The notes beneath the pieces are model-generated. The model saw only the letters and a program-made list of their open reading frames with translations, made no database searches and was not told where the DNA came from. A DNA stretch of 64,000 nt from Clostridia bacterium (GTDB lineage: Bacteria; Bacillota; Clostridia; Oscillospirales; CAG-272). The position numbers and the translations under genes were made by a program. This document shows, piece after piece, positions 2,944-45,767 of this stretch. Numbering within the stretch: position 1 is the stretch's first letter; each line of letters begins with the position of its first letter. The stretch lies in the NCBI GenBank assembly GCA_017471825.1, contig JAFURQ010000027.1:59478-123477 (forward strand), written 5' to 3'.

Positions 2944-5052
2944 ATGGTTCTGATAATCGCGGAAAAGCCGAGCCTTGCGCGTAATATCGTGGCTGGCATA
3001 GGTAAAATGGATAAAAAGGACGGCTATTTTATCAATTCCGATTATATAGTCAGCTGGGCGTTCGGTCACCTGTTTTCGCTCGTCGACGTCGAAACCTATA
3101 CCGGCACCACCGGCACAGGCTGGACCCTTGACACACTGCCTTGCTTTCCCGAAAAATTCAAGTTCGAGCTTAAACGCGGAAATGATAAGAAGGTCGATTC
3201 CGGAGTAAAAAAGCAGTTCTCCGTTATAGAAAAGCTCATCAACCGTCCCGACGTCGATACTGTTGTAAATGCAGGAGACGCGGACCGCGAGGGTGAGATT
3301 ATAGTAAGGCTTTGTATACAAAATTCGCTTAAATCTCCAAAGGAGCAAAAGCGTCTTTGGCTCCCTGACCAGACTCCCGAAACCGTCAGAAAGGCGCTTG
3401 CTGAAATGAAGGACGAGAGTGAGTATAACAGTCTTGCGGAGGAGGGCTTTGCCCGAACCTATATTGACTGGCTGTACGGCGTTAATTTGACACGGTATGC
3501 CACTATTCGCTCGGGACAGCTTCTCAGAGTGGGCAGAGTTATTGTTCCGATAGTCCGCGCAATATACGATAGGGATATAGAAATCAGAAATTTCAAGCCC
3601 GAAATATACTACGCCATACAATCAAGCGCAAAGACTCACGGGCAAAAAATTGACCTTGTAAGTAAACATAAGTTTGCAAAAGACGAGAAAAACAAGGCGG
3701 AAGAGCTCGCAACGCTTTACAATAATACGGGCGCTGTCGTATCTGCCGTTGAAAATAAAAAGGATACGATTTTCCCCGGAAAGCTTTACTCCTTGTCAAC
3801 TCTGCAAAACGTGCTTGGAAAAAAATATAAAATGAGCATGGCTGACAGCCTGAAAATTATACAAAAGCTCTACGAGGAGGGATACCTCACATATCCGAGA
3901 ACCAACTCGGAATACCTTGCAACTGCAGAAAAGGACAAAATGCGCTCGATAATCGCCAACGTTTCAAAGCTTGGATATCCCGTGCGCTTCAAGGACTCGA
4001 AATCAATATTCGATGACTCCAAAATCGAATCGCACTCTGCGCTTACCCCGACATACAAAATCCCCGACGTCAACAAGCTTGATGAAAAGGAAAAGCAGGT
4101 TTATTCCACCGTTTTCCGCAGATTTGTAGCGGTTTTCTGCGCCGAGGAGTGTATTGCGAGCAAGAGCGAGATACGGATAAAGGTTGGCGAGCTCGAGGAA
4201 TTTTCTCTCAAGGGTACGGTAATTCTTGAGCCCGGATGGACGAAATACGATGACTATTCCGGCAAGGATAAGGTCCTGCCCAAGCTTACAGTAGGGGAGT
4301 CGGTTAATATCGATTTCCAACCTACCGAAAAGGAAACCACACCGCCAAAGCATTACACTATCGAGACTCTCAATAAGTACCTTAAGAATCCTTTTAAGGA
4401 CGACAAGGCGAAGGCGCGCGAGCTTGAGGAGGCAGGCGAGGTCGACGATGCCGACGATTACCGCGCAATATTTGAAGGACTCGAGCTCGGCACCGAGGCT
4501 ACCCGTACGGGAATTATAGACAACGCCAGGAAAAGCGGATATATAAATCTCAAAAAGGATGTTTACACTATACTTGGCGGCGGTGAATTTCTTATAGAAT
4601 CGCTTGGACGCCTTGGTATCGCTATGGACAAGTATAAAACCAGCGAGATGGGCAAAGCGCTTAAAAAGGTTTTCCATGGAGAGATGAGCGCTGAAGAGAG
4701 TGTGAAGCTTGCAGAGCGTGAGATTCTCGAAATCTTCAAAAACGGAGGAACGGCGGTTGCTGCGGCGCCCGTACCGACAGGCTCGCTCGGTGAGATAGTC
4801 GGTCCTTGCCCCCTGTGCGGCAAGAACGTTATCAGAGGAAGACAGGGCTACGGATGTATGGGTTACAAGGAGGGGTGCGATTTCAGAATCGGGCTCACCA
4901 TTTGCAAAAAGACTGTACCGATAAATCAAATCCGCGCGCTTCTTGCGACGGGCACGACAGCAAAGCTTCGCGGTTTCATTTCAAAAACGGGAAAAAGCTT
5001 TGACGGAAAGCTGATAATAAAGGATGGAAAGGTTGTTTTTGATTTCAGTTGA
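2944..5052 (+). CDS. topB: DNA topoisomerase III with a C-terminal zinc-finger region
   Basis: MVLIIAEKPSLARNI is the Toprim N-terminus. YLTYPRTNSEYL contains the active-site Tyr region. The C-terminus has CPLCGKNV...GYGCMGYKEGCDF. GGAGG lies upstream of the start. Confidence 0.85.
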   Translation: MVLIIAEKPSLARNIVAGIGKMDKKDGYFINSDYIVSWAFGHLFSLVDVETYTGTTGTGWTLDTLPCFPEKFKFELKRGNDKKVDSGVKKQFSVIEKLINRPDVDTVVNAGDADREGEIIVRLCIQNSLKSPKEQKRLWLPDQTPETVRKALAEMKDESEYNSLAEEGFARTYIDWLYGVNLTRYATIRSGQLLRVGRVIVPIVRAIYDRDIEIRNFKPEIYYAIQSSAKTHGQKIDLVSKHKFAKDEKNKAEELATLYNNTGAVVSAVENKKDTIFPGKLYSLSTLQNVLGKKYKMSMADSLKIIQKLYEEGYLTYPRTNSEYLATAEKDKMRSIIANVSKLGYPVRFKDSKSIFDDSKIESHSALTPTYKIPDVNKLDEKEKQVYSTVFRRFVAVFCAEECIASKSEIRIKVGELEEFSLKGTVILEPGWTKYDDYSGKDKVLPKLTVGESVNIDFQPTEKETTPPKHYTIETLNKYLKNPFKDDKAKARELEEAGEVDDADDYRAIFEGLELGTEATRTGIIDNARKSGYINLKKDVYTILGGGEFLIESLGRLGIAMDKYKTSEMGKALKKVFHGEMSAEESVKLAEREILEIFKNGGTAVAAAPVPTGSLGEIVGPCPLCGKNVIRGRQGYGCMGYKEGCDFRIGLTICKKTVPINQIRALLATGTTAKLRGFISKTGKSFDGKLIIKDGKVVFDFS

Positions 5053-8740: not shown

Positions 8741-9442
8741 TTATTTGTTCACCGTAAATTTGCAGTTGGGATAGTTTGAGCAGCCGTAAAACTCGCCGTT
8801 TCTTCCGTTTCTCAAAACGAGCTTACCGTTGCATCTGGGGCAGATACCCTTGTCGATTTTCTTCTGATTTTCCTTGATACTCTTCACGTGCTCGCGTGAG
8901 GAAACCGTGCGGCTTGCCGCCGCCTTTAGGGTTTCATATATCCCGTCAATCTCCTTGCGATTATACTTTGTGCCGTCATCGTAATGCGCGAGGTAGTGCT
9001 TCAGGTCGTCAAGGTTGACTACGTATGGCACGTCGATCTTGTCCGCGTTATTCTGCACCATAACTACGAGGGAATTGACCTTGTAGCTCGGGCCGAGCAC
9101 GCGCTCAAGCTGGCGTATGTGAGATTTGTTTTGCCTTATGGGGTTGTTATGCTCGTGCTTCAGATTGCCGAGCACCTGTACCCACTTTTCTCTCTCCTCG
9201 TCGCCGTAAATAATTCCTGCATAGTTTTTCGTTTCTATACAGAAAATTCCGTTGCTTCTGATCTCAACGTGATCGATCTGATGGCTGTTTCCGTATCTGT
9301 CAACAAGCATCAGATTGTTTATCGTTTTGTTGTATGTAGCATCAAAAATCAGGGGATTAAGCTTTGAGTTTACCTTTCTTTCTCCCGCCTTTCCTTTGGC
9401 GTTGTTTACAATGGGTTGTACCATTTTTTTGAAAAATCCCAT
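8741..9442 (-). CDS. NERD-domain protein with a C-terminal topoisomerase-type zinc ribbon
   Basis: GERKV...IDHV..R..GIFCIETKNY is a NERD-like core. The C-terminus carries CPRCNGKLVLRNG..GEFYGCSNYPNC. Confidence 0.65.
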   Translation of the reverse strand: MGFFKKMVQPIVNNAKGKAGERKVNSKLNPLIFDATYNKTINNLMLVDRYGNSHQIDHVEIRSNGIFCIETKNYAGIIYGDEEREKWVQVLGNLKHEHNNPIRQNKSHIRQLERVLGPSYKVNSLVVMVQNNADKIDVPYVVNLDDLKHYLAHYDDGTKYNRKEIDGIYETLKAAASRTVSSREHVKSIKENQKKIDKGICPRCNGKLVLRNGRNGEFYGCSNYPNCKFTVNK

Positions 9443-10262: not shown

Positions 10263-10487
10263 TTATTTTTCCACTTGCTCACTGTCGCACGGCGGATTTT
10301 CATTTTGTGTTATTGCCTCGTCTTGCGCATCCTCAGAGCTTTCTTGTATTTCGCTCATATATCCGGCGGTGATAATACCGGCAGGCAATGCGACTATTGC
10401 AATTCCGAGCACGGAAGAAATCATTGTAATAACCAACGATAAAAATGCACTTCTTGAACCTTCAATAAAAGCATTATTGAGAATACA
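10263..10487 (-). pseudogene. 3' remnant of an ion-transport (K+ channel-like) gene: last TM helix and acidic tail only
   Basis: The reverse frame reads ...SLVITMISSVLGIAIVALPAGIITAGYMSEIQE...EQVEK*, which resembles the post-pore S6 segment of bacterial ion transporters. The frame is closed by TAG at 10488-10490 and no pore or N-terminal part is present. The plus-strand ORF 10255..10545 is a shadow. Confidence 0.45.
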
Positions 10488-10503
10488 CTATTTTTCAATA
10501 TCC

Positions 10504-11238
10504 TTACCAATCGTTTTCTTCTTTAACAACAAATTTCCATCTTAGTTTTTCAGCTCTAATACTGCTATATTTTTTAATATGGTCAAAATCGACCTCATCA
10601 CTGTCTACCCAATAAACCATATCATCTTTAAATATTACACTGGAGGAATATATTCTGTTATATGGTCCAAAGGCAAAGTCGATACAGATACCGCCTTCAA
10701 ATTCTAAAATAGCATCAAACGCTGCTTGTGAGTTGAATTTTAATTGTACTGTAGCTTCTTCTTCGCAACTATAAGGATTTGATTTAGCTGTAATTGAAAT
10801 TAAATACCAATCATGAAATCCACCGGTGTGATTCATCATATCTTCTGCTTCATCTTCGTTAGTTATCTCATTCCATTTGTCAGGATCTATATTAGCATTC
10901 ATTTCTTTAGCTAAAGTTATATATTTTTCATCTACTTGATTAGATTGTTCAATAGCTTTAAATACACTGACGTCTTCAATTAACCAGGGATAACCGGCAC
11001 AACTATCGATTTCGCCCATATTAATTTTTAACTTTGACTTTCTAACAAAACCATCTTCATGTTCATTCATTAAACCAATTTGTCTATGACCGTCACATTT
11101 TGCTGAAAAATAAGCAACAATATCAAACTTTTCATCAATTGGATCATACACAACGTAATGAGGCATATAATCATACTTAAAGTAAGCGAATACATACGAA
11201 TAATAAACTTTACCTTTATACTCTATTCTTGCATACAT
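10504..11238 (-). CDS. hypothetical protein in an AT-rich island; the C-terminal half looks like a polymorphic-toxin immunity protein (speculative)
   Basis: The start was set at MYARIEYK (ATG at 11238) because it is preceded by AAGGAGAG. The longer ORF (to 11355) merely reads through a relic of the rumA 3' end. No family was recognised. Confidence 0.55.
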   Translation of the reverse strand: MYARIEYKGKVYYSYVFAYFKYDYMPHYVVYDPIDEKFDIVAYFSAKCDGHRQIGLMNEHEDGFVRKSKLKINMGEIDSCAGYPWLIEDVSVFKAIEQSNQVDEKYITLAKEMNANIDPDKWNEITNEDEAEDMMNHTGGFHDWYLISITAKSNPYSCEEEATVQLKFNSQAAFDAILEFEGGICIDFAFGPYNRIYSSSVIFKDDMVYWVDSDEVDFDHIKKYSSIRAEKLRWKFVVKEENDW

Positions 11239-11310
11239 AACATTTACGCTCTCCTTGTAAAGAATTTCGCCTGCGGGCGAAAGCGATATTATTTTGCTTT
11301 GCTCAATATA

Positions 11311-11355
11311 GTTTGTCTGACGCGTCAGACAAACGACACTCTCGACGTGGGTCAA
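11311..11355 (-). repeat. displaced copy of the rumA-family 3' end (encodes HVESVVCL), embedded in a 24-nt perfect palindrome
   Basis: Positions 11327-11349 (agacaaacgacactctcgacgtg) match 12872-12894 at 21 of 23 nt, and both encode HVESVVCL. The palindrome gtttgtctgacg/cgtcagacaaac spans 11311-11334. Confidence 0.6.
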
Positions 11356-11358
11356 GAC

Positions 11359-11416
11359 GCCAAAAGGTATATTTTTAGGCTAAAAACAGGGGTTGTAAAG
11401 CCAAAAGGTATATTTT
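11359..11416. repeat. 17-nt perfect direct repeat (gccaaaaggtatatttt) in two copies, 41 bp apart
   Basis: The copies at 11359-11375 and 11400-11416 were read directly. Confidence 0.8.
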
Positions 11417-11473
11417 ATTCTCTCTTTTCCCATTCTTTTGAACTGCGACTTAATTATTTATTTGATCGTTTTG

Positions 11474-12208
11474 TCAATCGCCGATAAACTTCCAATATTT
11501 TTTAGTTATAGCTTCTCTTATCTTATCTTCAAGCATAGCGGCGTGATCGTAATCTCGGCTCTCGTTCCATTCTTGACTACTGTAGCTTGCCGCCATTCTG
11601 CGATACTCCGCCCTTATCACTTCTCTTTGCTCCTCTGTCAGATAGCGAACAGGAGTTTTGCGTATGGTTTCCACATCGCACCCAAGCTCCTCGCCTCTAG
11701 CGCGCATTGTGCTATAATAGTTATCAAGAAGCACATTTTCGTCAATGGGATTTGTAATATCTAAGCTTTTGAGCATTTCGTTTTCACAGGGTGTCATATA
11801 TTCAAACGCGCTTATGTCCGTATAGCTTTTCGAAAAGCTCTCGCCGCGATGTAGAATTCTTTTTGTATCTCCATTCTTTATGTTTGGTGGAAAGTAGGCA
11901 AAGCTACCACTATCCAAGCCATGCTGTCCCCAGCCATAACCAAAAAATTGAAAATCCGGAAATGAATACTTACGGATACATACGTTTTTATCGTTTAGCA
12001 TTTCAATAAAAAGCGACTTTGCCTCGGGGCTTATGGCAACCTTTTCTACGCCGTTAACCTCCGTTTGGTATACAATCGAGTTATAGTTGCCGAATTGCTT
12101 TTTGCCCGCAACAGTGAAAATATATTTGCTATCCTCTTTTGCGGAATCGAAAACGAGCATATCCTCGCCGTTTTCGTCTTTATCAAGGTAAATTTTTATG
12201 TAGATCAT
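11474..12208 (-). CDS. hypothetical protein (244 aa), AT-rich island
   Basis: This is a long ORF with coding-like composition. No family was recognised. Confidence 0.55.
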   Translation of the reverse strand: MIYIKIYLDKDENGEDMLVFDSAKEDSKYIFTVAGKKQFGNYNSIVYQTEVNGVEKVAISPEAKSLFIEMLNDKNVCIRKYSFPDFQFFGYGWGQHGLDSGSFAYFPPNIKNGDTKRILHRGESFSKSYTDISAFEYMTPCENEMLKSLDITNPIDENVLLDNYYSTMRARGEELGCDVETIRKTPVRYLTEEQREVIRAEYRRMAASYSSQEWNESRDYDHAAMLEDKIREAITKKYWKFIGD

Positions 12209-12283
12209 AGTTATTCCTCTCTGTATGTTAAAGATACCGCTATAAAATGAACTTTTGAGTTTTGCTCAAAAGCAATATTGTCC

Positions 12284-12637
12284 TTAACTGTTTTCCTTTG
12301 CAGTGGTGATAGATTTAACTAACATACGGCGGATGATTCCACATTCTTGCAAAAGTTCTTTTGAAATTTGTTCGCTTATTGCATTTGAGCCGACGAGCAT
12401 TTCAATCCAATATTCTGTTTCACCGCACTCTTTTAGTGCAATATGGAATTTGTTTATAAAGTCTGCTTTGCTTACAGCATAGTTAGCCTCATGAATATTT
12501 GCTCCAATAGAGGTTGCACTCCTCACGATTTGATTTACAAGAACACCTCTGCCTTTGCGAGTGTCAACCTCGTCACAGACAGCGATTATGTGTAGAGCAA
12601 GTGCCTTTGCTCTTGTGCGTAATTCGGAATCTTTCAT
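12284..12637 (-). CDS. four-helix-bundle protein (23S rRNA intervening-sequence protein / DGR Avd-like family)
   Basis: The 117-aa protein carries ...QIVRSATSIGANIHEANYAVSKADFINKFHIALKECGETEYWIEML..., a typical TIGR02436/PF05635 pattern. Confidence 0.8.
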   Translation of the reverse strand: MKDSELRTRAKALALHIIAVCDEVDTRKGRGVLVNQIVRSATSIGANIHEANYAVSKADFINKFHIALKECGETEYWIEMLVGSNAISEQISKELLQECGIIRRMLVKSITTAKENS

Positions 12638-12659
12638 ATTCTTCCCCTTTGTGTGGTTG

Positions 12660-12850
12660 GTGAAGTTTTGCTCCTTCGTCGCAAAGTGAAGTTACTCACT
12701 TCGTTCGTAGTGAAGTTGTTCGCTTTGCTCACAGTGAAGTTAAGTTCGCCTCAAAATTACTTCTCACTTGCGCCGCAAGCGACGCAAACTTCACTTCGGC
12801 GGTAGCCGAAACTTCACTGCTTTGCAACTTCACTCGCCGCAGGCGAACTT
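12660..12850. repeat. motif array: GTGAAGT four times in direct orientation (24-26 nt period), then ACTTCAC three times (plus one variant), each separated by a different short hairpin
   Basis: GTGAAGT occurs at 12660, 12686, 12710 and 12734. ACTTCAC occurs at 12788, 12811 and 12827, with the variant acttctcac at 12769. The intervening hairpins are ttcggc-ggta-gccgaa, tgc-ttt-gca and tcgcc-gca-ggcga. A 9-bp pairing aagttcgcc (12742)/ggcgaactt (12842) could close the domain. Confidence 0.7.
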
Positions 12851-14229
12851 AGTTGTCGAGTCTGTCGTTTGAGACAAACGACAGACTCGACGTGTCCTGT
12901 CGCAGGAAAAAGGTCGAAGGGTGTAACTGTGCCGGGGGTATAGCCGAGGTCGGCAAAGAGGCGGCAGTCACGGGCAAGAGTCGTCGGATTGCAGGAGATA
13001 TAGACAATTCGTGAGGGGGAAAGAGATGCCGCAAAGCTTACAAGACGGGCATCGCAGCCCGCACGTGGCGGATCCAGAATTACAACGTCGGGGCGGATGG
13101 TGCGGCCAAGCTCGCGCTCGGCGCGTTCAAGGAGCTTTTCGGTGTCTTTGGCGTCACCCGTGTAAAATTTTGCGTGCTTTATATCGTTGGCGGCGGCGTT
13201 TTCGGTGGCGCATTTTACCGCGCTGTCAATGATTTCTATGCCGATAAGCTCGCCGCACTTGTCAGCCATTGAAAGACCGATTGAGCCTGCGCCGCAGAAA
13301 AGGTCGAGCACGGTGTCAGAGCTCTTTGGAGCGGCGAGCTCGCGTGCCTTGGCGTACAGCATATCCGCCGCCGCGCGGTTTACCTGATAAAACGAGGGGG
13401 CGGTTATCTTCAGCCTTACACCGCCGAGGGTGTCGAAAATGTAATCCCTGCCGAAAAGCGTGCGCCATCCGTTGCCGAGAATTACGTTCGTTGCCGCTGT
13501 GTTGGTATTCAGAAGTATTCCTACTATTTCAGGGTATCTCTCGTTCATTATCCGAACAAGCTCACGCTCGCAGGGAATTGAATCACCGTTTATAACGAGA
13601 GTCAAAAGAACCTCTCGGCTGATTTCGCCGCGGCGTAAATATACGTGCCGCAGGAGCCCTGTGCCGCTCTCTTCATCGTATACCGAAACAGAGTGCTTTT
13701 TGAAGAAGGTGGCAAGCGTGTCAAGAATTTCGCCGAAAATTTCGGGCGCAAGAGGGCAGTGGCGCGCCTCGGTTACCCTGTGCGATTTCGGCGCGTAAAA
13801 GCCTATTACGTAATTGCCATCCTTGCCGATAGCGATGGGGTACTGCGCCTTGTTCCTGTAGCCGACAACCTCGGGGGAGGGAACAGCGGGTGCGATTGCC
13901 ACCTCGCGCAGTCCCTCGTGAGCGAATGCCTCGCGCACGGTTTTCTCCTTCAGCTTCAGCTCATGCTCGTAAGAGATGCTTTTGTATGCACAGCTTTTGC
14001 AAGCCGATATATCGCATCTTCCGTCATGGCGCAAGGGGGATTTTTCTATATATTTCTCTACACGCCCTATGGCGTATGATTTATTTACCTTGATAATTCT
14101 CGAGTCTATAACGTCGCCGCTGATAGCATCCGAAACAAATACTATCTGCCCCTCGTGTCTGCCGACACCGAAGCCGAGATTTGTTATGTCGTTTATTTCG
14201 AGTCTGATAATATCGTTCTTTTTAAGCAT
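12814..14229 (-). CDS. 23S rRNA (uracil-5-)-methyltransferase, RumA/TrmA family (TRAM plus Fe-S plus SAM-methyltransferase domains)
   Basis: There is a TRAM-like N-terminus and a Cys cluster CDISACKSCAYKS. DLFCGAGSIGL, DPPRAGC and YISCNPTTLARD are class-I methyltransferase motifs. The C-terminal tail after HVESVVCL runs into the repeat array. Confidence 0.85.
   Translation of the reverse strand: MLKKNDIIRLEINDITNLGFGVGRHEGQIVFVSDAISGDVIDSRIIKVNKSYAIGRVEKYIEKSPLRHDGRCDISACKSCAYKSISYEHELKLKEKTVREAFAHEGLREVAIAPAVPSPEVVGYRNKAQYPIAIGKDGNYVIGFYAPKSHRVTEARHCPLAPEIFGEILDTLATFFKKHSVSVYDEESGTGLLRHVYLRRGEISREVLLTLVINGDSIPCERELVRIMNERYPEIVGILLNTNTAATNVILGNGWRTLFGRDYIFDTLGGVRLKITAPSFYQVNRAAADMLYAKARELAAPKSSDTVLDLFCGAGSIGLSMADKCGELIGIEIIDSAVKCATENAAANDIKHAKFYTGDAKDTEKLLERAERELGRTIRPDVVILDPPRAGCDARLVSFAASLSPSRIVYISCNPTTLARDCRLFADLGYTPGTVTPFDLFPATGHVESVVCLKRQTRQLSSPAASEVAKQ
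12855..12891. repeat. 16-bp perfect inverted repeat overlapping the last conserved codons of the rumA-family gene
   Basis: The sequence gtcgagtctgtcgttt gagac aaacgacagactcgac was read directly. Confidence 0.85.
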
Positions 14230-17084: not shown

Positions 17085-17159
17085 TGGTGACCCGTGGGAG
17101 AATCGAACTCCCGTTTCAGCCTTGAGAGGGCCGTGTCTTAGCCGCTTGACCAACGGGCC
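17085..17159 (-). tRNA. tRNA-Glu (anticodon CUC)
   Basis: The minus-sense sequence GGCCCGTTGGTCAAGCGGCTAAGACACGGCCCTCTCAAGGCTGAAACGGGAGTTCGATTCTCCCACGGGTCACCA folds into a cloverleaf. The anticodon loop is CT-CTC-AA, the T-loop is TTCGATT, and CCA is encoded. Confidence 0.9.
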
Positions 17160-17549: not shown

Positions 17550-20500
17550 ATGAAAAAGTCAATCAAAATTTTGACTCTTGTCCTCGCGTTGGCGTTGATA
17601 TGCGGTGCGCTTGTTGTAAGTGCATTTGCTACTGAAGAAGCGGCTGTAACAGGCGTTACTCAGAGCATACTCATCGACTTCCAGGACTCTCCCACAGAAG
17701 AGGCGTCCTATTTGGACGGCGTTGCTCAATCTGACATTTCAACCGTTCCCACATCTCAGGGCGCAGTTCCTAAGATCGTTTGGAAGGAAACAGGTAAGAT
17801 TAAGATGACTACCTCCGAGTATGACACGGAAAACAAGTACATGCTCTGGACCACGACGGTTGGTGGCAGCACAACCTACATTGACTGTTATCTTCATAGC
17901 AAGCCCTCCGCTTCCGGCGAAGTGCTTAATATGACAGGTAAGGCAGGCACCGATGTAAAATACATCGTTATGGACGTAGACCTTATGCTTCCCACCGAAG
18001 GTGTTGCTCCTAAGAACGCAAACATTCAGTTCCTCAGAAGAACCGTTGCTGACGGCGCTACCGCTAACTCCTTCGTTGATAATGCTACTAAGTACACCGG
18101 TACGGGACTTCCCACAAGCGTTCTGAATATTCAGGCAGACGGTAAGATCAACTGCTATAATTCCGCCGGCGCTTGGGTAGCTAACGGTAAGATCGTCCTC
18201 GGCACCTCTTGGACTCACATTACCGTAGTTCTTGAGAACGAGATTCTTCAGGACGGTGACGGCGTTAATTATGTTAGAACCACCGAGTATTTGTATGCAA
18301 ACGGTGCTCTCGTAGACTCGTTCGTTTGGTTCGATAACAGCGCATGTCCCGACGCATCGGTTTACTGGAATTCAGATAAGACCAACTTCAACTACTGTGA
18401 CGTCAGAGTTAACGTAGCCGGTAACGATACCGAGGCTCAGCTCGCTATCGATAACTTCAACGTTCGTATGCTCAGCAATGAGTACAACGGTAACCTTAAG
18501 ACCGTTCTTACCGACGGCACAAGCATTACCCTCGCTGACGTTAACGTTTACGACCCCGAGAACATGCCCTTCGGTACTCTCGCGGCTACCAACGAAACTC
18601 AGGGCACCTACTACGATAGCTTTAACAAGGCTGTTGCAGCAGCTGCTGATGACGACGTGCTCCTTCTCAACGCTGATCTTACCAAGGACGTAACCCTTGA
18701 TAAGTATCTTGAAATCTACCCCGGCGAATATTCCGTAGGCGATCACCTTAAGGTTGCTGAGGGCTGGCAGGTTGAGTACGATGATGTTGCACTCTGCTAC
18801 TTCACCTCCGAGATTACCGACCCCTACACCGTTACCTGGGGCGCTTGTAACTGCGGACTTGCTGAATGTGATGCAACTCACCCCGGCAACGCTACCTCCG
18901 AGCTCGGTATCGGCGCTAACATCTACGACGCATACGAGCAGGCTGTTGAAAACGGCTACGCTTGGGGCGTTACCGTAGACGGCCGTTACTACTACCTTGC
19001 AGGCTGGACGAACGCTGATACAAGCGAAGAGCTTGCAGCTGACGCTGTAGTAACCGACGAAATGCTCGGCACGAGCGTTACCTACAACCCCATCATCAAG
19101 AGCAAGCTTCCCCTTTACTCTTACGTTGATGCTACCGGCAACGCAGCTATCGGCTTCGACGATAACACTCTTTCTGAGATAGTTGAGCTTGCAAAGCCCA
19201 ACTCCACCATCACCCTTCTTGCTGACGTAGTGATTCCCGATACGGCTCCTATATCAATCAGCAAGAACCTTACCATTGACCTCAACGGTCACGTACTCTC
19301 CGACGTTAAGGTTACCGCTAAGTATGCTACCTTCTCTCCCGGTGCTAACTTCACCATCAAGGGTGACGTAGAAGGCTCTACCGTAGTAAAGGCTCACAAT
19401 ACCAGCGGTACCAACTATCAGGGTGTATTTATTCAGCCCTCTTCTTCATCGGCTGTTATCAATTTCGAGGGTGAAAACCTCGCTGTATTCGTTCCCTGTC
19501 TTGTTGCTTCCTGGGGCACCACCATCAACCTCAACATTGACGGCGGCTACTATGCTAAGGGTAACTCCTCCGACAACGGCGGTTACATGTATGCAAACGC
19601 AAGCGCTAAAACAAACGTTAGCCTTAAGAACGCAACCTTCGGCGATATCCACGGCTTTGATATCTATTATACCAATACCGTGCCTCACACCTTCACGGCT
19701 GATAACTGTATATTCCTTGACTATGTAATTAACGTATTCGTCCCCGGACTTACGGACGCAACTATCACTAACTGCTACATCGCATCGACCGCTAAATTTA
19801 AGTATGAGGCTTCGTGGAAGAACAATGGAAGCCCTGCAGACCTCGGCGGTTCTGCATACCTCGGCGCAGGCAACTGGATTTCAGCCGATGCTGAGATCTC
19901 GCTTCTCAAATACTCAGAGAATATCGATGCTTACGATGCAGCTAACAGCATAGTTGTTCCCGTACAGAAGATCACCTTCTCGACCACTAACGGTGTTGTA
20001 AGCTACGCTATAGCTACTACCGAAACCACCTACACATTCCAGAAGTACACTGCAGACTCTTCCAAGCTTGCTAACGTTACCTGGTATGACACCGACGGCA
20101 CTACCGTTCTCGGCACTACCGTAGGTATCCCCGGTCTTAACGCTTCTGCTCCCGGCGTTCCTGTTGCTGACGGTTGGGTAAATGCTCATTACACCGATTG
20201 GACCAACGCTAACGGCGAGAAGACCACTCTCGTTCCCACCGATGCAACCGAGGTTGCCTTCACTCTCGTTGCGGGCTCCGCGGCTGATTACACCGTAGGT
20301 AAGGTTCCGCTCTGGATGAACTGGGCATATCTCTCTCACTCCAGCATTAACGTTTACGTTCCCGCAAACGCTCCCGCAGGTGTAACTCTCACCGACGCGA
20401 GCCTTAACGGAACCAACCGTTGGGCTAACCTTAACGCTAACACCGGATACACCGTTGCTGACACTGCAGTTAACTGCATGTCCGTATGGCCTCAGATCCA

Positions 20501-21152
20501 TCAGGTTGACAACGGTATTTCCGTTTCCGTAACCTTTACCTACGAGGGCAAAACTCTCACCTATGCTATTACTGCAAACGTAGCAAACTACGTTCAGAGA
20601 GTTCTTGAGAACAACCACAGCCAGGCACAGAAGGAAGCTATCGCAGCTTGGGCAGGCTACGTTATTGCAGCTAACAATGCTGCAGGCGAAACTACCACCG
20701 ATGCCTTCCTTGCAGTTTACAACGGCATAGCTCAGGAATATCTTCCCGAGGCTCGTGAGCTTGGCGTAACCGCAGCTCCTGACGTATCCGCTCTCAGCAC
20801 CTACATTGAATCTGTAACCGGTGCAGTCGGCGCAGACAGCCTTGGCTCCTTCGTGTTCAAGATTACTCCTAAGGCAGCTCTCACCGAGGCAGGCTACACC
20901 ATCACTTGCTCGGTTGCAACTCCCGCGAAGAAGTCCGACGGTAACTATTATATTCAGAACGCTAATGCTCACTACCTTGACAACGAGTTTACTATCAAGG
21001 TTATGAACGGTGAAGAGGTTGTTGCACAGGCTAACTACTCTCTTGCAGGTTACCTCTACTCCATTCAGGGTCAGACCGGCACCACCCTCACTGAGCTTGC
21101 TGAGGCTGCTTGGCTCTACTTCGGCGCAGTATCCGCTATTAAGAATTATTAA
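17550..21152 (+). CDS. large secreted protein (1200 aa) with a signal peptide; candidate surface or S-layer-like protein
   Basis: The N-terminus MKKSIKILTLVLALALICGALVVSAFA is a signal peptide. The composition is rich in Thr, Ala, Asn and Val. Segments such as NLTIDLNGHVL resemble beta-helix/adhesin repeats. Codon choice visibly resembles that of the ribosomal genes. No LPXTG, SLH or other anchor motif was recognised. Confidence 0.75.
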   Translation: MKKSIKILTLVLALALICGALVVSAFATEEAAVTGVTQSILIDFQDSPTEEASYLDGVAQSDISTVPTSQGAVPKIVWKETGKIKMTTSEYDTENKYMLWTTTVGGSTTYIDCYLHSKPSASGEVLNMTGKAGTDVKYIVMDVDLMLPTEGVAPKNANIQFLRRTVADGATANSFVDNATKYTGTGLPTSVLNIQADGKINCYNSAGAWVANGKIVLGTSWTHITVVLENEILQDGDGVNYVRTTEYLYANGALVDSFVWFDNSACPDASVYWNSDKTNFNYCDVRVNVAGNDTEAQLAIDNFNVRMLSNEYNGNLKTVLTDGTSITLADVNVYDPENMPFGTLAATNETQGTYYDSFNKAVAAAADDDVLLLNADLTKDVTLDKYLEIYPGEYSVGDHLKVAEGWQVEYDDVALCYFTSEITDPYTVTWGACNCGLAECDATHPGNATSELGIGANIYDAYEQAVENGYAWGVTVDGRYYYLAGWTNADTSEELAADAVVTDEMLGTSVTYNPIIKSKLPLYSYVDATGNAAIGFDDNTLSEIVELAKPNSTITLLADVVIPDTAPISISKNLTIDLNGHVLSDVKVTAKYATFSPGANFTIKGDVEGSTVVKAHNTSGTNYQGVFIQPSSSSAVINFEGENLAVFVPCLVASWGTTINLNIDGGYYAKGNSSDNGGYMYANASAKTNVSLKNATFGDIHGFDIYYTNTVPHTFTADNCIFLDYVINVFVPGLTDATITNCYIASTAKFKYEASWKNNGSPADLGGSAYLGAGNWISADAEISLLKYSENIDAYDAANSIVVPVQKITFSTTNGVVSYAIATTETTYTFQKYTADSSKLANVTWYDTDGTTVLGTTVGIPGLNASAPGVPVADGWVNAHYTDWTNANGEKTTLVPTDATEVAFTLVAGSAADYTVGKVPLWMNWAYLSHSSINVYVPANAPAGVTLTDASLNGTNRWANLNANTGYTVADTAVNCMSVWPQIHQVDNGISVSVTFTYEGKTLTYAITANVANYVQRVLENNHSQAQKEAIAAWAGYVIAANNAAGETTTDAFLAVYNGIAQEYLPEARELGVTAAPDVSALSTYIESVTGAVGADSLGSFVFKITPKAALTEAGYTITCSVATPAKKSDGNYYIQNANAHYLDNEFTIKVMNGEEVVAQANYSLAGYLYSIQGQTGTTLTELAEAAWLYFGAVSAIKNY

Positions 21153-45507: not shown

Positions 45508-45767
45508 ATAATAGCTTGAATGCGATGAAGCGGGAGGTGGCTACCCTTGAGGTAGGGAATTTCCGTGGAGCAGTCCGATATATTAACCGGGCGAAAAGAG
45601 AAGTTACGCCTATCCGGGCGTTCTGTGTTCGTTGTCGGTTCCGATAGTCACTGCGGAGACTGTCTGAACTGATTTTGTAAGGGCACAAAAGAAACGCACG
45701 GAGCTGTGTAAAACCTCTTGCCCTTCTTAAAACGGCTTAAGCAATACGTAAAAAGGAGGAAATTATA

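Follow-up and report, generated by a model that had tools for sequence, protein, structure and literature searches.

Two kinds of RNA with parts comparable to those described here are the protein-titrating RNAs, such as the TRAP-binding trp leader and RsmZ/CsrB, in which short motifs repeated between or on hairpins are bound by a ring-shaped or multimeric protein, and the 23S rRNA intervening sequences (IVS) of Leptospira and Coxiella, which carry an open reading frame (ORF) of the PF05635 family. A third is Gut-1 (RF01706), consisting of three hairpins split by the heptamer GUGAAAU, reported from human gut metagenomes only and classed as a non-cis-regulatory small RNA with no function given (Weinberg et al. 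2010, PMC2864571); this 2010 description is the only literature on Gut-1 that we found. The present work concerns an array of roughly 250 bases that lies between a rumA-family rRNA methylase gene and a gene for a four-helix-bundle (4HB) protein, in a stretch of 64,000 nucleotides from a Clostridia bacterium of the CAG-272 lineage (contig JAFURQ010000027.1, positions 59,478 to 123,477 of the forward strand; hereafter the window). Judged by motif, order and strand, the array is a sub-threshold variant or relative of Gut-1, and the published model corresponds to its first half. The data suggest that what has stood in Rfam since 2010 as a functionless three-hairpin motif is one half of a larger module, widespread in gut Clostridia.

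Seven exact copies of a heptamer in two orientations run through the array, at precisely the positions given in the original prediction, which was made by a reader who saw this DNA only. Because both flanking genes lie on the minus strand, the RNA would carry three GUGAAGU units (X) and then four ACUUCAC units (X'), the opposite of the plus-strand layout with GTGAAGT leading that was first proposed. Read on the minus strand, the element consists of a palindrome (P0), the dinucleotide AA, a segment termed S0, a hairpin (h0), three units of GUGAAGU plus hairpin, a degenerate fourth unit and a segment termed S0'; there follow four ACUUCAC units with three intervening hairpins, about 20 nt that include a Shine-Dalgarno sequence (SD), and the ATG of the 4HB gene. 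P0 had been missed and belongs to the element; its 5' arm is made of the rumA codons VESVVC and its 3' arm of their complement. The variant copy between the two blocks and the three different small hairpins among the ACTTCAC copies are both present as described, and the spacers among the GTGAAGT copies, which had not been recognized as such, are hairpins too, all three of them (h'1, h'2 and h'3) with tandem G.A/A.G pairs inside. S0 can pair either with 12834-12838, giving h0, or with S0', forming a long-range helix (12741-12751 with 12841-12851); the closing pairing originally put at 9 bp thus exists and co-varies, and its actual length is 11 bp. The true conserved core of the rung motif is a 9-mer, AGTGAAGTT. 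Across both strands of the window there are 11 GTGAAGT/ACTTCAC sites, against 5.65 +/- 2.25 expected, and seven of the 11 are packed into 174 nt (12660-12833). The rumA ORF enters the array by 13 codons owing only to a 1-nt frame difference; in other loci rumA ends at the TAA of CTAAGTT. No promoter or terminator was found between rumA and the 4HB gene in the window, and the short distance from X'4 to the SD is the same in related loci.

At the gathering threshold no Rfam family was found at the array. Below that threshold, Gut-1 matches 12855-12783 on the minus strand with 31.8 bits (E 1.3e-4; gathering threshold 50). The match takes in all of the model (positions 1-77), agrees with it in order and strand, and places h0, h1 and h2; the threshold was reached by none of 20 related loci. 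Gut-1 and the array share three short hairpins split by a repeated 7-mer with a partial unit in front, a gut origin, and hairpins that in the array are backed by covariation, and at least one Gut-1 seed sequence has the second half in its flank. The array differs in having GUGAAGU instead of GUGAAAU or GUGAUAU. The Rfam model and the 2010 paper hold the first half only: P0, the S0:S0' helix, the complementary second half, the link to 4HB genes and the cassette setting are not in the Gut-1 description.

Related loci were assembled as two sets: set 1, reached through the 4HB protein, comprises 3 contigs from exact protein look-up and 80 species-level genome loci, and set 2, the array-first set, comprises 108 metagenome stretches matched by an S0-h0-X1 pattern. 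The array layout was found in about 190 loci of gut Clostridia. All loci of set 1 come from metagenome-assembled genomes (MAGs) of gut Clostridia; going by record titles and names, the relatives derive from MAGs and metagenomes of the ruminant, camel, giraffe and human gut. The array lies upstream of the 4HB gene in the set-1 loci, with the usual count of 3 + 4 exact motifs in most of the 80, and every fully sequenced leader among these shows at least part of it. Module count and order differ among loci, and collapsed and half arrays occur; in one locus (L055) a collapsed leader of the form S0-h0-ATGAATTTCAC-SD stands ahead of the next gene.

Covariation among homologous leaders, proposed as a check along with the original prediction, was found together with conservation. 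In a plain MAFFT alignment of 61 sequences compared with 500 shuffles, 92.7% of the cells in h0, h1 and h2 are paired (74.4% in shuffles), 147 cells are changed on both sides (44 in shuffles) and the covariation score is 0.375 (0.10 in shuffles), values as high as these being reached by 0 of 500 shuffles in each case, and controls with slid registers have only 24-56% of cells paired. Changes on both sides affect 10 of the 16 pairs in the first half; column pair 10-23, in h0, has 39 sequences with UA and 21 with CG, and column pair 54-67 is UA in 23, CG in 14, AU in 13 and GC in 9. The unique hairpin spacers, 72 in the X half and 164 in the X' half, fold better than shuffles (p 6e-8 and 8e-23). 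Since 68/72 and 156/164 of them begin with T and end with A, the hairpins are closed by a U-A pair and directly adjoin the motifs, leaving no base unpaired between them. The loops are rich in pyrimidines in the first half (UUC, UAC, UGC, UUU) and are the purine-rich complements of these in the second half (GAA, GUA, GCA, AAA, GCAA), a pattern that could stem from inverted duplication or from loop-loop contacts.

Within S0, TAAGTT is invariant across the 61 aligned sequences, and the S0:S0' helix has 99% of its cells paired, with a variable position that is UA in 39 and CG in 21. The triple formed by this base in S0, in the h0 arm and in S0' is T/A/A in 35 sequences, C/G/G in 21 and mixed in 0; the length class of the h3 segment goes together with the CGCC type of S0 in the alignment. 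Two co-varying and mutually exclusive partners of S0 argue for alternative structures. Both triples occur in different hairpin backgrounds and are scattered over the 4HB tree; the leaders recombine as blocks, so that the number of independent changes of the triple is not countable. Hairpins at the P0 position come in 57 distinct sequences in set 1, where 38 of 72 loci have at least 7 bp (20 of 1440 random segments do), and in the array-first set, where they lie 2-3 nt upstream of the array, the corresponding figures are 57/103 and 46/1030. At this place a hairpin recurs, free in sequence.

In every sister family the motif of the second half is that of the first half in reverse complement: GCGATAT with ATATCGC (L020, L028, L030), TCGATAT with ATATCGA (L026, L314-L319), ATGATGT with CATCAT (L056), TGAATTG with CAATTCA (L016), and GUGAUAU with AUAUCAC in one Gut-1 seed sequence; in these families S0 and S0' likewise consist of the family's own motif and an h0 arm. 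A partition function run on 46 leaders yields two ladder registers, one (X1:X'3, X2:X'2, X3:X'1) with a probability of 0.33-0.36 and the other (X1:X'4, X2:X'3, X3:X'2) with 0.40-0.44. That the X:X' pairing is used seems to us fairly likely. The X units would then zip onto the X' units to give a ladder of helices; with flush hairpins, the joint between one rung and the next would be a four-way junction in which every base is paired. The surplus X' unit would permit two registers of nearly equal energy, and the S0:S0' helix would be an alternative state, probably co-transcriptional. The earlier suggestion of a structured RNA in which GTGAAGT copies pair with ACTTCAC copies has thus gained comparative support, from compensatory hairpins, from the co-varying closing helix and from the reverse-complementary motifs of the sister families. 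Within a family the X and X' copies are identical while the hairpins drift, and one-to-one pairing would permit the copies to diverge pairwise; identity therefore means that any X must pair with any X', that a common factor reads each copy, or that the copies are homogenized. Sequestration of the SD was also considered and dropped, there being no clear signal of it from the energy models.

Mismatches in the hairpins bear on which strand folds. The 164 unique spacers of the X' half contain 801 Watson-Crick pairs, 34 G.U pairs, 1 A.C pair and 45 tandem G.A/A.G mismatches, as against 0 tandem pyrimidine mismatches, and the X half has 6 G.U and 2 A.C pairs. This asymmetry excludes a function in double-stranded DNA or in a symmetric cruciform and identifies the folded strand as the one that reads like the downstream mRNA; the idea of an array of protein-binding sites, raised in the original prediction, accordingly falls for double-stranded DNA and may hold for binding to the RNA. 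Folding of both strands was strong for the single sequence (z -5.2 and -6.0), as is expected of any inverted repeat, and such scores therefore say little alone; for the X' half, the sense strand gives the better fold of the two (p 4e-9). We consider a functional single-stranded structure on the sense strand very probable, and that the folded strand is RNA probable. RNA rather than one DNA strand is indicated by an orientation that is constant with respect to the downstream gene, by array ends a few nucleotides before the SD, by sigma-70 promoters just upstream in stand-alone 4HB units (12/12 in L077, 11/12 in L057), by copies bounded by terminators, and, in the window, by a terminator after the 4HB gene with neither promoter nor terminator between rumA and that gene.

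Table. Coordinates of the array, its parts and the adjoining genes and cassette elements in the window
Feature	Position	Strand	Description
rumA/RlmD	14229..12814	-	PF05958 + TRAM; TIGR00479, 341 bits
P0	12855..12891	-	perfect 17-bp palindrome/hairpin with 3-nt loop, then AA, then S0; within last rumA codons
S0	12842..12852	-	CUAAGUUCGCC; partial X unit and 5' arm of h0
h0	12834..12846	-	hairpin UCGCC-UGC-GGCGA; 99.4% of alignment cells paired
First half, region matched by Gut-1	12788..12833	-	motif scan and MAFFT alignment
X1	12833-12827	-	GUGAAGU
h1	12826-12818	-	
X2	12817-12811	-	
h2	12810-12795	-	
X3	12794-12788	-	
h3, degenerate X4 and linker	12751..12787	-	h3 hairpin at 12787-12768; read from sequence
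Degenerate X4	12767-12759	-	GTGAGAAGT (as RNA unit GUGAGAAGU)
S0'	12741..12750	-	GGCGAACUUA; copy of h0 3' arm and partial X' unit; distal partner of S0
Second half	12660..12740	-	X' units and h'1-h'3
X'1	12740-12734	-	ACUUCAC
h'1	12733-12717	-	
X'2	12716-12710	-	
h'2	12709-12693	-	
X'3	12692-12686	-	
h'3	12685-12667	-	
X'4	12666-12660	-	
Tail	12638..12659	-	short, with Shine-Dalgarno-like AAAGGGGAAG at 12650-12641, ahead of 4HB ATG at 12637
Rung motif GTGAAGT	12660, 12686, 12710, 12734	+	
Rung motif ACTTCAC	12788, 12811, 12827	+	
4HB gene	12284..12637	-	117 aa; PF05635 / TIGR02436; PDB 2RLD, E 6e-21
Hairpin closing the 4HB unit	12251..12273	-	terminator-like; part of ~75 nt of conserved sequence downstream of the gene
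Right end of cassette 1	11350..11445	-	17-nt direct repeat AAAATATACCTTTTGGC, twice; abuts second rumA 3'-end copy
Second rumA 3'-end copy	11311..11349	-	CACGTCGAGAGTGTCGTTTGTCTGACGCGTCAGACAAAC, reads HVESVVCLTRQTN; start of cassette 2; compare 12894-12856

The array is an autonomous module: every clade-A 4HB gene comes with one, but the majority of arrays lack such a gene in cis. A 4HB homologue is present in only about ten of the 108 array-first stretches, and the array-first search exposed the notion that every array belongs to a 4HB gene as a sampling artefact of protein-based fetching. Where 50 distinct complete arrays had enough downstream sequence to be classified, the array is followed by an intrinsic terminator in 17, by a 4HB gene in 6, by another gene (for example for an S4-domain protein or DNA polymerase I) in 4 and by sequence of unclear kind in 23, several of which keep the 3' segment that follows 4HB genes, the gene itself being gone. 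With so few 4HB genes beside arrays, a role for 4HB in cis cannot be the general function. The window array itself runs into the SD of the 4HB gene without a terminator, in contrast to the 17 array-first copies that end in one; the first placement of the array, in the leader of the 4HB gene and the tail of rumA, was right for the window and too narrow for the module, which is often stand-alone with a terminator of its own. In 11 of 97 array-first cases rumA adjoins the array. The upstream hairpin falls into two kinds in this set, one a recurrent structured type that shows compensatory variants, the other the terminator of an upstream gene or tRNA. A recurrent P0 type, TTAGCGTGTTATCC-TTAAC-GGAGAACACGCTAA, stands with its compensatory variants before stand-alone arrays, for example in L206, L226, L236, L246 and L251. 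Conservation extends to the loop (UUAAC/UUAA), and this hairpin could be a motif in its own right. Two arrays occur in one MAG (L020 and L066, isolate RGIG3901). In IMG/VR the specific array pattern had 0 matches, and an origin from phages was discarded: a loose three-motif pattern gave 119 matches there, none with S0 or X'.

Close relatives of the 4HB protein number in the thousands, and its closest solved homologue, PDB 2RLD, is listed with five chains. A second 4HB clade again lies behind rumA-family genes or in cassettes and has its own motif, and altogether four 4HB clades lie behind arrays with four different motifs, a match of clade to motif that, on the sequences compared, is consistent with co-evolution or, equally, with co-inheritance. 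The protein had no match in PADLOC, and little was found in the literature on the function of PF05635.

Several further observations concern the 4HB genes and their surroundings. The 4HB paralogues further into the cassette arrays are pseudogenes with an internal stop or an internal deletion (L028 5400-5716; L030 ~4270-4400), and the GCGATAT arrays belonging to them are largely intact; in L225, L237, L245 and L301 the array and the 4HB terminator are kept and the gene is lost. In L081 and L084 the 4HB gene has an X array upstream and an X' array downstream, and the converse, an X' leader with an X array following the gene, is found in L070, L073 and L086; X and X' flanking a 4HB ORF could pair across the gene, which would recall rRNA intervening sequences. 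The 4HB gene of L083 is flanked on both sides by P0 and the first half, in a direct repeat of ~130 bp. Many public 4HB predictions have 150-205 aa instead of ~117 aa, probably through gene callers that extend the ORF upstream through the array, and contigs with 4HB homologues are mostly very short, as if assemblies break there.

In the window the array and the 4HB gene make up cassette 1 (12894-11350) in a tandem series that is anchored at the attachment (att) site of a serine recombinase, the rumA 3' end; rumA is a known target of integrative and mobilizable elements that use serine recombinases (PMC5704250). The tandem cassettes extend over 12894-10504 on the minus strand, each starting with CACGTCGAG...GTTTGTCT (HVESVVCL) and ending with a right end, a conserved segment of ~95 nt; the two rumA-end copies in the window are only about 25-35 nt long. 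The junction of right end and rumA end recurs in many loci, up to five times in one of them (L032), and the cargo between junctions is hypervariable (125 ORFs fall into 101 clusters). RumA proteins whose neighbouring 4HB cassettes are nearly identical share only 27-64% identity with the RumA of the window, and the identical P0 sequence stands behind unrelated rumA bodies, the similarity beginning exactly at the His codon of HVE. P0 combines the constant junction sequence with a complement encoded by the cassette. Most junctions have no array, so the array is cassette content and not the recombination site. In L035 a gene for a large serine recombinase (958-2634; Resolvase + Recombinase + Zn_ribbon_recom) is fused to a junction of the rumA type: its last codons, ..QVETIVCLCKQ* (2600-2650), form the att/P0 sequence that immediately precedes a cassette of array and 4HB gene, and by sequence this junction suggests an att core CA[CA]|GT[CT]GA. 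No recombinase was found in cis among the window ORFs scanned, and a regex recombinase screen of all loci returned only the serine recombinase of L035. We found no published description of a tandem cassette array anchored at rumA.

The start of cassette 2 (11230-11310, minus strand) holds a decayed leader with a single AATATCGC unit and the hairpin TTTCGCC-CGC-AGGCGAAA; it precedes the SD of an unannotated 244-aa ORF and resembles the end of the GCGATAT arrays of L020. Both 244-aa ORFs of the cassettes (12208-11474 and 11238-10504) are without a match in Pfam, NCBIfam or PADLOC. GC content is low at 10400-12600 (30-40%, as against 50-58% in rumA), coinciding with the cassettes. A few kb past them, at 8741-9442 on the minus strand, lies a gene whose product combines a NERD domain with a zinc ribbon of the topoisomerase type and has weak PADLOC matches to PglW and MkoA. 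On the plus strand of the window a 1200-aa ORF without a Pfam match (17550-21152) adjoins a tRNA-Glu gene (17085-17159), and an S10-Clostridia ribosomal protein leader (RF03136, 48.8 bits) stands at 45517-45594 before a ribosomal protein operon, which assigns the organism to Clostridia.

A number of known systems and simpler explanations fall away. Clustered regularly interspaced short palindromic repeats (CRISPR) are excluded by a constant unit of 7-9 nt, where identical repeats of at least 23 nt would be expected, by 'spacers' that are palindromes of 7-19 nt and by two blocks of opposite orientation, and a repeat of identical palindromes of the repetitive extragenic palindrome (REP) type is excluded because the palindromes all differ (72 and 164 unique spacers) and the 64-kb window has one array. 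These two exclusions, and that of a coding sequence, had been made in the original prediction and hold; its reservation that the array might be a degenerate coding repeat was not borne out, since chance and a coding repeat alike are refuted by the site counts, the recurrence and the covariation, the overlap with rumA being an accident of frame. A diversity-generating retroelement was rejected, as the ORFs from 755 to 21152 include no reverse-transcriptase domain and the rumA-end repeat is too short. As to an integron attC site, P0 and S0/S0' by inspection do not fit the R''/R' consensus (RYYYAAC ... GTTRRRY), and no tyrosine recombinase was found. Matches to rRNA, near the RumA target U1939 and at 16S positions 1489-1495 (GUGAAGU), are coincidental, because the sister families use unrelated motifs.

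Taking these results together, we lean towards a Gut-1-type module of structured RNA whose action depends on the X:X' fold, a leaning that does not extend to the identity of any partner; that the folded strand is RNA and that it forms the ladder in two registers is what we infer from the comparisons above. In view of the X/X' copies that are identical within a family while the hairpins drift and of the separate motif of each 4HB clade, the array fold would most likely serve as a sequence-specific binding platform for a trans factor, its function being the least certain part. The best candidate for the trans factor would be the pentameric 4HB protein, a proposal that we make tentatively and hold to be rather doubtful. 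In the window the array would be transcribed from the minus strand as a rumA-4HB intercistronic leader, binding of the 4HB protein would feed back on the processing, stability or translation of the 4HB message, and stand-alone arrays would bind the same factor. In its most far-reaching form, which we regard as unlikely, the proposal would amount to a new RNA-protein system in which an X:X' zipper folds, or multimerizes, into a ladder of perfect four-way junctions that a PF05635 pentamer reads by clade-matched 7-mers, supplying a long-missing functional context for the orphan family of 23S IVS proteins; such a pair might act in the upkeep or spread of tiny elements adjacent to hairpins, be they rRNA intervening sequences, cassettes at rumA att sites or stand-alone Gut-1 copies.

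Various points weigh against the proposal of an RNA module read by the 4HB protein. Support for X:X' comes from complementarity between families and from energy models, not from covariation within families, and in L071 all four X' are ACAUCAC with only one X compensated, which shows that homogenization of copies occurs. The S0:S0' helix has a predicted equilibrium probability of about 0 in the partition function, and the SD is not clearly sequestered (unpaired probability 0.45). One specific single DNA strand would give identical strand asymmetry; G.U pairs are rare in the first half; and the triloops that dominate, for example GAA closed by C-G, are very stable in DNA as well. Where a promoter is present, its -10 box extends into the 5' arm of P0, so that the RNA made there may lack part of P0. 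As for the partner, a 4HB gene is present now or was formerly present in about 6-10 of 50 array-first copies, and the match of 4HB clade and motif could be mere co-inheritance within the cassette.

The most serious competitor, although an unlikely one, is a low-copy, modular and possibly mobile repeat akin to REP, to bacterial interspersed mosaic elements (BIME) or to BOX, which would land beside hairpins and act in RNA only as a generic nuclease block or insulator at gene ends, with the constancy of X and X' reflecting recent spread and concerted evolution instead of recognition by a factor. The many genomic contexts would suit such a repeat, as would its place 2-3 nt after a hairpin that is often the terminator of an upstream gene or tRNA, the variable number and order of modules with their collapsed and half forms, the concerted change of all X' copies in L071 and the two copies in one MAG (L020, L066). 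It leaves less room for hairpins that differ between orthologous copies and yet remain paired, for the conserved tandem G.A motifs with co-varying flanks, and for the three-way covariation of S0, which a simple nuclease block does not need; moreover, the 64 kb of the window genome hold a single array, and no transposase or RAYT-like gene was seen nearby. Decidedly less likely is an RNA that assembles in trans, the X of one molecule pairing with the X' of another to form dimers or lattices or to exert antisense control between cassettes. Half arrays on opposite sides of a gene (L070, L073 and L086; conversely L081 and L084) would allow it, the one shared motif lets any X pair with any X', and S0:S0' can close the first half so that X units are displayed in a multiloop; in silico, however, intramolecular pairing is strongly favoured, and most arrays have both halves in cis.

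Readings in DNA are harder to reconcile with the distribution and the mismatches. We think it improbable that the array is a single-stranded DNA signal of a mobile cassette, for recombination, replication or transfer: large serine recombinases act on double-stranded DNA, most cassette junctions lack an array, most arrays lie outside cassettes and are bounded by a terminator or SD, and the search of IMG/VR found no array, for all that the window array adjoins an att-like cassette junction, that strand asymmetry fits one DNA strand too and that loops of the d(GCGAAGC) type are common. A double-stranded DNA operator, at which a protein would bind seven sites in two orientations, could account for the two orientations, for the period of about 24 bp and for a family-specific motif adjoining a family-specific small protein; it leaves unexplained the conserved hairpins, the 40 to 3 ratio of G.U to A.C pairs with 45 tandem G.A pairs on one strand, and the terminator-bounded copies, and we judge it highly improbable. 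Least probable of all is a pair resembling type III toxin-antitoxin systems, in which the repeat RNA would neutralize the downstream small protein. A repeat array directly upstream of a small protein gene, in a cassette setting that suggests accessory genes, does recall such pairs, ToxIN among them; but the units here differ beyond the 7-mer and are not identical direct repeats of ~36 nt, no terminator separates repeats and gene, the protein belongs to PF05635, not to ToxN/AbiQ, and is without a PADLOC match, and 4HB genes decay or are deleted while arrays persist.

The structured RNA module with its platform thus remains the reading we favour, and its fold is a concrete prediction, with four-way junctions that stack, a choice between two registers and, as an alternative, a closing helix. 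PF05635 proteins, related to Avd and to the 23S IVS protein, have been a family without a function outside diversity-generating retroelements, and the array suggests a partner for them. Were the array no more than a repeat that blocks nucleases, Clostridia would have in it their counterpart of REP/BIME, of use in annotation but no surprise.

Compared with known systems, the array follows an unusual rule: its linkers are constant, its hairpins are free, and the linkers of the second half complement those of the first. REP/BIME of enterobacteria and BOX of pneumococcus resemble it as extragenic modular arrays of palindromes with short conserved linkers that fold in RNA, often follow genes and vary in module number; in those repeats the palindromes are conserved, whereas here the linkers are conserved, the palindromes are free and the two halves have complementary linkers, and the copy number appears low beside that of REP/BIME, with one array in the 64-kb window. 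The tandem cassettes around the array are like integron cassettes and rumA serine-recombinase elements in being small, in tandem and hypervariable in cargo, and are set apart from integrons by the absence of an integron integrase and of the attC consensus; nor do they have a recombinase of their own. The 23S rRNA intervening sequences share with the array the same protein family, flanked by sequences able to pair across it, and insertion beside or inside a host hairpin; the array differs in not lying in rRNA and, in the window, in having both halves upstream of the gene, and excision by RNase III would be hypothetical here. Finally, the protein-titrating RNAs also present several copies of a short constant motif at hairpins to a multimeric protein, for which 2RLD, listed with five chains, offers a parallel; half of the motifs in the array complement the other half, a feature absent from those RNAs.

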